Shown piece after piece: positions 4,816 through 4,969 of a DNA stretch of 20,580 nt. The stretch's first letter is position 1. Each line of letters starts with the position of its first letter. The DNA is from a virus (lineage: Duplodnaviria; Heunggongvirae; Uroviricota; Caudoviricetes), in IMG/VR virus record IMGVR_UViG_2737471827_000003, positions 1 through 20,580 of that record, one strand, 5' to 3'. The notes under the pieces were generated by a model. It saw nothing but the letters and a program-made list of their open reading frames with translations, had not been told where the DNA came from and made no database searches. The position numbers were made by a program, and so were the translations under genes.

Positions 4816-4891
4816 GCCGACTTAGCTCAGTAGGTAGAGCAACTGACTTGTAATCAGTAGGTCACCAGTTCGATTCCGGTAGTCGGCACCA
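4816..4891 (+). tRNA. tRNA-Thr (anticodon UGU), thrU-like
   Basis: Acceptor GCCGACT/AGTCGGC, anticodon stem ACTGA/TCAGT with loop CTTGTAA, T-loop TTCGATT, encoded CCA. Appears to match the host thrU sequence as I recall it. Confidence 0.75.
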
Positions 4892-4894
4892 TAT

Positions 4895-4969
4895 GCGGGC
4901 ATCGTATAATGGCTATTACCTCAGCCTTCCAAGCTGATGATGCGGGTTCGATTCCCGCTGCCCGCTCCA
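4895..4969 (+). tRNA. tRNA-Gly (anticodon UCC), glyT-like
   Basis: Acceptor GCGGGCA/TGCCCGC, short D-arm (TATAATGG), anticodon stem TCAGC/GCTGA with loop CTTCCAA, T-loop TTCGATT, encoded CCA. Appears to match E. coli glyT as I recall it. Confidence 0.8.

Follow-up and report, generated by a model that had tools for sequence, protein, structure and literature searches.

Where does a lambdoid phage obtain a tandem pair of tRNA genes resembling those of its host, and what might such a pair be good for? The question is raised by positions 4816-4969 of the IMG/VR virus record IMGVR_UViG_2737471827_000003, of which positions 1 to 20,580 were analyzed; this whole stretch of 20,580 nucleotides (nt) is called the window below. 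On its + strand, tRNA models recognize one cloverleaf with the anticodon TGT at 4816-4891 and one with the anticodon TCC at 4895-4969, corresponding to tRNA-Thr(UGU) and tRNA-Gly(UCC) (ARAGORN; Rfam RF00005 scores of 73.8 and 64.9 bits, respectively, against a gathering threshold of 29). Compared letter by letter, the Thr gene equals thrU of Escherichia coli K-12 MG1655 over 76/76 nt and the Gly gene equals glyT over 75/75 nt, in both cases with the encoded 3′ CCA included. In a megablast search, the 154-nt stretch was matched at 100% in 5,421 of 5,426 complete E. coli genomes, as two pieces around a tRNA-Tyr gene. The stretch thus consists of two intact tRNA genes that are identical copies of the enterobacterial chromosomal thrU and glyT, and by sequence both are tRNA genes of the thrU/glyT type. 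A sequence-only reading of the locus had described them as very near or exact copies of these host genes; pairwise comparison revealed no divergence, which bears this out. With 151 of 151 positions identical, the sequence comparison makes the host origin of the pair secure. A partial tRNA duplication of the attP/attB type was considered as well and rejected, since neither gene is truncated and both are located among the late genes, with no integrase nearby.

The annotated K-12 MG1655 genome places both genes in one operon, in the order coaA, thrU, 8 nt, tyrU (85 nt), 116 nt, glyT, 6 nt, thrT, tuf, which is the thrU-tyrU-glyT-thrT arrangement named in the sequence-only reading. Order and orientation of the Thr and Gly genes in the window are those of the host, but tyrU is missing between them, as had also been noticed, and the trinucleotide TAT (4892-4894, + strand) alone separates the genes. 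Its first T is also the nucleotide that follows thrU in the host, and its AT corresponds to the 2 nt with which the tyrU-glyT spacer ends there. When window positions 4400-5400 were compared with the K-12 operon by sensitive BLAST (word size 7), two abutting 100% matches were obtained, with 4815-4892 representing host T, thrU and T, and 4893-4969 representing host AT and glyT. The other matches in this region were short, namely an 18-nt match to the thrU/thrT paralogue inside the Thr gene and chance matches of 9-10 nt. Positions 4815-4969 are hence host sequence minus one block of 206 bp, in which tyrU is accompanied by 7 nt from the spacer before it and 114 nt from the spacer after it, and a spacer composed of T and AT is what deletion of tyrU predicts. 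Neither tyrU nor the operon spacers gave a significant word-7 match anywhere in the window, and the flanks hold no remnant of them beyond the host-matching edge bases (T at -1 of thrU, T at +1 after thrU, AT at -2/-1 of glyT). Phage sequence begins right after the CCA of glyT and, save for the shared T at -1, right before the first base of thrU. The operon promoter and leader upstream and thrT and tuf downstream are absent from the window, where the flanks are unrelated phage DNA. As a fragment of the host operon, the window preserves thrU, glyT and their relative order only.

We propose that an ancestral lambdoid phage acquired, from the tRNA operon in the tufB leader of its host, the part running from thrU to glyT; one 206-bp deletion would then have removed tyrU and left no more than 3 nt of the spacers. 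The resulting Thr-TAT-Gly dimer would afterwards have been distributed as a cassette among lambdoid prophages through recombination events, some of them with crossovers within tRNA genes. Of the origins that we can derive from the sequences, one capture and one clean deletion of 206 bp that took out tyrU require the fewest assumptions, and we consider this course probable. The sequence-only reading had likewise suggested that a captured fragment of the host operon was later shortened by deletion; the host origin, the gene order and the exact 206-bp gap support this in part, while the single capture itself stays an interpretation of the gene order and a 3-nt junction.

Several observations weigh against this proposal. 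The junction evidence amounts to 3 nt, and 4 of the 64 trinucleotides would fit some partition of the two host spacers, giving a chance of about 1/16; A/T-rich spacers with U at -1 may be favored anyway. Among the 50,697 records of INPHARED, tyrU or an operon spacer beside thrU or glyT occurs in 0 phage records, full-operon matches being limited to Salmonella chromosomal contigs filed in that collection, and a scan of IMG/VR for the host spacer-glyT junction returned 0 viral contigs. The complete E. coli genomes contain 0/5,426 cases of tRNA2-thrU-spacer-tyrU (tRNA2 being the phage tRNA gene that precedes Thr in the window) and 0/5,426 cases of spacer-glyT-phage-trailer. The sole match above 80% coverage, in strain VL40, is an ordinary Thr-TAT array with a Gly body that carries a UAC anticodon and a damaged 3′ end (L148 1221-1291).

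A first alternative holds that thrU and glyT were captured separately, both for codons that the phage over-uses, and that tight packing makes the host-like order coincidental. Selection alone would predict exactly these tRNAs, as GGA, GGG and ACA are among the most over-used codons of the phage. Moreover, Thr(UGU) occurs without Gly in arrays of the SfI/P21 type, glyT-like genes occur alone in Yersinia and Morganella phages, and the spacers of the array all measure 1-3 nt whatever the neighbor. The order and orientation are nevertheless those of the host, and the two abutting host matches leave no unexplained base at the junction. The SfI-type Thr gene is also a different, diverged gene with 27 differences from thrU and is no evidence for a solitary capture of the thrU type; in scans anchored on the 3′ end of thrU, a thrU-type Thr is always followed by Gly, except in the contigs L142 and L143 discussed below. 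Taken together, we judge two separate captures unlikely.

The reverse direction, in which the host operon would derive from a phage, had been left open by the sequence-only reading and can be excluded. Salmonella keeps a thrU-tyrU-glyT-thrT-tuf operon in which thrU, tyrU and glyT are identical to those of E. coli and the 116-nt spacer differs at four positions. The operon upstream of tuf is thus conserved across the two genera and is present in 5,421 of 5,426 E. coli genomes, whereas the phage dimer is found in only 16%. Convergence of phage genes on the host sequences is no better placed, as an identity of 151/151 cannot arise in this way; nothing beyond the identity itself speaks for either variant, and their joint probability is negligible. 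The Salmonella genes also led us to reject exact identity as a sign of a recent capture from E. coli. With tRNAs that are invariant between E. coli and Salmonella, and phage copies that are under purifying selection, identity does not date the capture.

The dimer is by no means restricted to this phage. A 59-nt junction probe detected it in 869 of the 5,426 complete E. coli genomes, a single genome holding as many as five or so; the complete genomes contain roughly 1,000 prophage copies in all. IMG/VR contributes over 120 contigs. When one genome of each species was scanned with an exact pattern, hits were confined to Escherichia (including E. ruysiae), Shigella, Citrobacter and Enterobacter, always with a 3-nt spacer, besides a 423-bp Corallococcus contig that is probably contamination. 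Isolated phages with the dimer are phi467, PhiR47_1, 606R7, 689R5, 683R6, the LT-IIb prophage SerU-LTIIb and JLK-2012, and plasmid pSTEC711_1 carries it too. The flanks differ among carriers right up to the ends of the tRNA genes. The proposed capture and deletion would have taken place in an ancestral cassette common to many lambdoid prophages and not in this particular phage, which corrects the earlier picture on this point. Among 131 modules we distinguished 43 alleles, of which the host-identical one is the commonest (32/131). The spacer is TAT in nearly all of them (TGT, TTT and TAAT are rare), and a frequent Gly variant, C6T/G66A, is a compensatory pair; variant Thr alleles include T16C/T20C and G42C/T43C.

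Two further observations concern the distribution of these genes. Where the dimer lacks preceding tRNAs, it is headed by a conserved leader, GGTTCYGAGGG...CCYGARGAACCA, which folds into a long but imperfect hairpin and whose terminal CCA lies some 2 nt from the first base of Thr. This leader hairpin is found in 51 of 131 arrays (e.g., L003 2427-2500, L004 1950-2005 and L005 1948-2005); it may have been left over from a tRNA pair since deleted, or may act as a signal for processing. In addition, the large lytic E. coli jumbo phages Ecwhy_1, BF17, CMSTMSU, fEgEco12 and E9.1 encode a tRNA-Thr whose sequence agrees with thrU at 100% across 74 nt, so host-identical copies of thrU are not confined to temperate phages.

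Undeleted arrays, with thrU, tyrU and glyT in a phage context, were found only in metagenome and draft contigs. The IMG/VR scan for the thrU-tyrU junction yielded two contigs from one genome (2681813004), L142 (2162-2205, - strand) and L143 (3222-3283, + strand), in which the array is followed by thrU, the host 8-nt spacer and nt 1-35 of tyrU. In both, tyrU is interrupted at one and the same base of its anticodon, and the DNA that follows differs between them (the inside of a methylase gene in one, a PerC region in the other); they also share a private 1-nt deletion in tRNA2. They represent either a collapsed-repeat artifact or a site-specific event, and we do not rely on them. A metagenome scan for tRNA2-thrU-spacer-tyrU returned three contigs. 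L145 leads from a phage array via thrU and tyrU to sequence 3′ of tyrT/tyrV (the RtT small RNA) and is a chimera, its assembly path threading the tRNA repeats. In L146 (a 515-kb contig) and L147, which are of the same phage type as the window, the 284 nt after thrU equal the K-12 operon (spacer, tyrU, spacer, glyT), after which the phage trailer follows; the window corresponds to these two minus the 206-bp block. L146 and L147 may be misassemblies through exact repeats of 76 and 75 bp, which leaves them as unconfirmed intermediates. Even if they are real, their insert is modern E. coli sequence, spacer included, and would point to recent re-acquisitions by double crossover instead of ancestors of the diversified cassette.

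L146 and L147 are also an argument for a second alternative, according to which an old dimer has been kept identical to the host by recurrent gene conversion with the chromosomal operon, which at times copied in tyrU and the spacers as in L146 and L147. The perfect repeats of 76 and 75 bp exceed the minimal length for RecA recombination, and two other findings fit in: recombination has occurred inside a tRNA gene of phage JLK-2012 (see below), and the changes G42C/T43C are common to Thr alleles that are nearly host-identical and to others that are strongly diverged. On the other hand, neither the Lys-Thr-spacer-tyrU join (Lys being the ARAGORN call for tRNA2) nor the spacer-glyT-phage-trailer join was found in the complete genomes searched above, though 869 of them carry the dimer, and L145 demonstrates that chimeric paths through tRNA repeats exist in the metagenome collection.

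Sequence diversity bears on the same issue. In a set of 26 distinct arrays with the architecture of the window, the mean pairwise difference was 0.009 for Thr, 0.003 for Gly and 0.007 for the first tRNA of the array (tRNA1), against 0.030 for the trailer and 0.038 for tRNA2; the values for Thr and Gly are slightly underestimated, as the scan pattern fixed 18 nt of each. Thr, Gly and tRNA1 are thus 3-10 times less variable than the trailer or tRNA2. As tRNA1 is not identical to a host gene yet equally conserved, purifying selection suffices to account for the low diversity and gene conversion with the host need not be invoked. We regard recurrent conversion as rather unlikely, and a single ancestral capture with loss of tyrU remains our preferred reading.

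That recombination reaches into the tRNA genes of these arrays is shown by phage JLK-2012, whose array reads Asn-Thr-TAT-Gly. Its Thr gene (L140 1442-1517) is a mosaic in which nt 1-25 equal the SfI/P21-type tRNA-Thr (SfI, L149 519-594) and nt 26-76 are of the thrU type with four differences. One of these four, the compensatory T68C, restores the 5:68 base pair, and the crossover falls in the conserved GGTAGAGC. We first took into account that the 11 differences of this gene from thrU might reflect ancient divergence, a reading that was rejected because seven of them come from the recombinant SfI-type 5′ end. As judged from its sequence, the mosaic shows how an existing phage tRNA can recruit host-type sequence.

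Anticodons have shifted in several related genes as well. SerU-LTIIb contains a thrU body with a UCU anticodon, annotated as tRNA-Arg (L139 1122-1194), two IMG/VR loci carry thrU bodies with UUU (G35T), and the glyT body with UAC in strain VL40 was described above. A thrU/argU anticodon swap was reportedly shown experimentally by Saks et al. (1998).

The repeats raise the further idea that the prophage dimer, carried by about 16% of E. coli genomes, still recombines with the chromosomal operon in the tufB leader through their 76- and 75-bp identities. We hold this to be doubtful. On such a view, the host operon would overwrite prophage arrays, giving rise to real arrays of the L146/L147 kind and to truncated forms such as L142 and L143. 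Conversely, prophages could delete tyrU from an essential chromosomal tRNA operon or rearrange it, and prophage arrays would be built and rebuilt by recombination within tRNA genes, as in JLK-2012, and not by rare illegitimate capture.

In the window, the pair forms the 3′ half of what the sequence presents as a compact transcription unit of four tRNAs with a predicted promoter and terminator, situated in a ‘moron’ slot. The window as a whole is a lambdoid (pro)phage encoding HNH/NinG-like, RusA, Q (PF06323), P21-type holin, lysozyme and Rz proteins, followed by HNH, terminase, portal, protease, capsid and tail genes, and phages such as vB_EcoS-689R5 and PhiR47_1 match most of it at 92-94% identity. 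ARAGORN predicts four adjacent tRNAs on the + strand, with the anticodons CAT (4660-4735), TTT (4737-4813), TGT (Thr) and TCC (Gly), separated by 1, 2 and 3 nt; each of the four scores above the Rfam gathering threshold of 29 bits. A predicted sigma-70-type promoter (TTGCAA, 17 nt, TATTAT; 4622-4650, + strand; 9/12 in a consensus scan) ends 9 nt before the first base of tRNA1 and is accompanied by the GC-rich discriminator CCTGCGCCC. At least seven upstream sequences that are unrelated in other respects preserve the geometry TTGCAR-17-TATTAT-9 nt-(+1) ahead of the array. Downstream of Gly lies a structured trailer with three long hairpins (4970-5175, + strand), identified by RNA folding and co-linear with the Thr-Gly module in several phages. 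The 236 nt from 4970 to 5205 (three hairpins plus terminator) fold with a minimum free energy of -80.9 kcal/mol (z = -5.3 versus shuffled sequences). An Rfam search of the region from promoter to holin matched only the four tRNAs, and no family was assigned to the trailer. The same trailer flanks the dimer in phi467 and PhiR47_1 and follows 41 of 135 modules; from the fold, a role in processing or stability, or as a small RNA, is conceivable. An intrinsic-terminator-like hairpin (GCCCGCTTTTGCGGG and a T run; 5176-5200, + strand), conserved in L146 and L147, closes the unit just 5′ of holin S (P21 type; 5261-5476, + strand; PHROG holin; Pfam PF04971, 121.5 bits), which is the first gene of the lysis cassette.

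Upstream of the unit, on the same late-gene strand, lies the gene of the late-gene activator, antiterminator Q (1047-1742, + strand; PHROG 304, E-value 1e-107; Pfam PF06323 Phage_antiter_Q, 305.8 bits), so that the array sits between Q and holin S. Just 3′ of Q, a terminator-like hairpin is present (1803-1838, + strand; arms 1803-1814 and 1821-1832, 92% complementary, followed by T7), and a diverged but similar hairpin occupies the same position in the related contig L147. Between this hairpin and the tRNA promoter, an IS66-family element has inserted on the - strand (1877-4575; Pfam DDE_Tnp_IS66, TnpB_IS66 and HTH_Tnp_1). It carries the complete set of tnpC (1907-3478), tnpB (3498-3845) and tnpA (3845-4522) on that strand, and its ends, as read from the sequence, are bounded by the 8-bp target duplication GGTGGAGG at 1869-1876 and 4576-4583. 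The uninterrupted target site is present in L146 and L147, and without the element about 195 nt would separate Q from the first tRNA, as in L146. The element puts 2.7 kb between Q with its promoter region and the late genes.

The two tRNAs that precede the pair are of a different kind. tRNA1 (4660-4735, + strand; ARAGORN; Rfam, 70.6 bits) belongs to the AUA-reading tRNA-Ile2 type and is ileX-like; it is identical to K-12 ileX at 67/76 positions (nine differences, with a compensatory 6:67 change) and hence not host-identical. tRNA2 (4737-4813, + strand; Rfam, 44.4 bits) is called ‘Lys’ by ARAGORN, but alignment with argU and with the UCU allele of other prophages (loop CUUCUAA, Arg UCU) reveals an argU/argN-type body with the anticodon loop CCUUUAA, i.e. 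C33 and the anticodon UUU. U33 is near-universal in tRNA anticodon loops. In our allele survey, C33/UUU was commoner than UCU in tRNA2 (42 versus 18 of 131 arrays), and several arrays contain decayed versions. tRNA1 and tRNA2 share about 90% identity with the ileZ-argN region of Stx phages. By sequence, the array thus joins old tRNAs of a phage lineage with two host-identical ones. The contrast drawn by the sequence-only reading, of captured genes instead of independently evolved phage tRNAs, is supported for Thr and Gly (151/151), next to diverged neighbors.

What the array may do can be approached through codon usage, for which the 19 phage genes of the window (4,843 codons) were compared with 42 K-12 genes (14,748 codons) by within-family ratio. 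GGA makes up 22.9% of Gly codons in the phage and 7.8% in K-12 (2.9 times; p = 3e-13), GGG 26.9% versus 12.0% (2.25 times; p = 1.4e-10), ACA 21.0% versus 10.2% of Thr codons (2.1 times; p = 1e-5) and AUA 11.3% versus 4.2% of Ile codons (p = 1.5e-4). AGA and AGG are enriched several-fold, and Lys codons are not. Ranked by this ratio, the top seven of 59 codons are AGG, AGA, GGA, AUA, CGG, GGG and ACA, and for six of these seven (all but CGG) this array family has a tRNA type that reads them. The window itself leaves AGA and AGG without such a reader, as its tRNA2 carries UUU and not UCU.

In E. coli, the readers of ACA and GGA are each encoded by one gene only, thrU and glyT, respectively, and both tRNAs are of low abundance. 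A second, identical and constitutively transcribed copy would therefore be a plausible benefit in dosage. To judge by the sequences, the pair most likely supplies tRNA dosage for ACA and for GGA/GGG, which the phage over-uses. The array would be transcribed from its own constitutive promoter of the stable-RNA type and, upon induction, would in addition be covered by upstream transcripts of Q-modified polymerase. Cleavage into mature tRNAs would fall to RNase P and 3′ exonucleases: the spacers of 1-3 nt with U at -1 leave no room for other processing, so that RNase P cleavage followed by 3′ exonucleolytic trimming is expected. The phage copies would be charged and modified exactly like the host tRNAs because they are identical to the host genes, and the extra dosage would help to translate ACA and GGA/GGG codons that are two to three times commoner in phage than in host genes. 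The conserved predicted promoter, the predicted terminator, the low diversity and the compensatory changes in variant alleles lend indirect support to the idea that these tRNAs would be made, processed and aminoacylated in vivo. For the tRNA-Thr(UGU) of SfI-like phages, an ACA share of 17.3% in the phage versus 7.1% in the host has been reported (PMC3636060), and the codon enrichment in the window fits the interpretation published there. Two points count against this functional view. CGG and TCA are enriched as well, making the enrichment partly a general weakening of codon bias, and the IS66 element that separates Q from the late region may have impaired this prophage.

Codon supply does not explain the C33/UUU loop of tRNA2, as AGA and AGG are the most over-used codons of the phage and AAA and AAG are not enriched. 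This loop is one of the reasons to consider counter-defence, in which the array would replace tRNAs destroyed by anticodon nucleases of the host or lost through the tRNA decay that infection induces. Such a strategy is established in other phages, such as T4 against PrrC, T5 with its tRNA-Lys against PARIS and mycobacteriophages with anticodon-loop variants. Host-identical Thr and Gly tRNAs would be cleaved just like those of the host, though, and could help by dosage only. We also know of no nuclease that targets tRNA-Thr(UGU) or tRNA-Gly(UCC) in E. coli, and codon usage already fits well. Counter-defence is accordingly a very unlikely purpose of the pair, while tRNA2 taken by itself could be a surrogate or decoy resistant to anticodon nucleases directed at tRNA-Lys. 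Overall, we consider the combined account likely, with both the origin and the function of the array inferred: a host operon fragment, shortened once and spread as a cassette, that would serve codon demand.

The pair reveals no new mechanism and is an ordinary, common prophage tRNA moron. Its value is that of a clean worked example of how temperate phages would gain tRNA genes: a piece of a host operon trimmed to the boundaries of the mature tRNAs, placed under a predicted promoter of the stable-RNA type in the moron slot between Q and S, and then passed on as a cassette. This cassette is carried by about one sixth of the complete E. coli genomes and occurs in an Stx2f phage and an LT-IIb toxin prophage. 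In lysogens, the extra copies would raise two minor tRNAs encoded by single genes (the ACA and GGA readers), which bears on the expression of phage-borne toxins and late genes, and tRNA gene counts and tRNA-based codon-adaptation indices would differ between E. coli strains. Possibly more interesting than the pair itself are the anticodon-shifted thrU, glyT and argN bodies, the common C33/UUU tRNA and the mosaic tRNA gene.

Among known systems, one close counterpart is the thrU-tyrU-glyT-thrT-tufB operon of E. coli and Salmonella. The window shares with it the base-identical thrU and glyT, their order and orientation, 1 nt after thrU and 2 nt before glyT; it differs in lacking tyrU, the 8- and 116-nt spacers, thrT, tuf and the operon promoter and leader, and in having phage flanks. 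In T4, closely spaced tRNA genes are transcribed as dimeric precursors that are separated by RNase P and 3′ trimming, and Thr(UGU) and Gly(UCC) are encoded there too. The T4 tRNAs differ from the present module in being diverged from those of the host, some without an encoded CCA, and have no sequence relationship to it.

Among phages, the module as such is already known, as identical copies are annotated in published genomes. Phi467 (an Stx2f phage, LN997803), PhiR47_1, vB_EcoM-606R7 and vB_EcoS-689R5 encode Thr and Gly genes that are 100% identical to those of the window. Phi467 and PhiR47_1 also share its trailer, the spacer being TAT in phi467 and TGT in PhiR47_1. Upstream, phi467 has stxAB and a leader hairpin, where the window has the Ile2-like and argN-like tRNAs and, farther up, IS66. 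The two tRNA loci are mentioned in the paper on phi467 (PMC5189129). In the literature on prophage thrU/glyT, ileZ/argN/argO and lambdoid tRNA-Thr/Gly we found only passing mentions, and no paper noting the thrU/glyT identity or the operon-deletion junction.

In position, packing and codon match, the array belongs with the lambdoid late-region tRNA clusters. The ileZ-argN-argO genes of Stx phages (annotated in AP012530), whose function was reportedly addressed by Plunkett et al. (1999), occupy the same slot, are packed as tightly in tandem and follow the same logic, namely tRNAs for codons used seldom by the host and often by the phage. Slot, packing and codon rationale are also shared by the Asn-Thr(UGU) pair of SfI, Sf6, ST64T and P21 (PMC3636060). 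The tRNAs of the ileZ/argN and SfI types represent diverged phage lineages, whereas the Thr and Gly genes of the window are exact copies of host genes.

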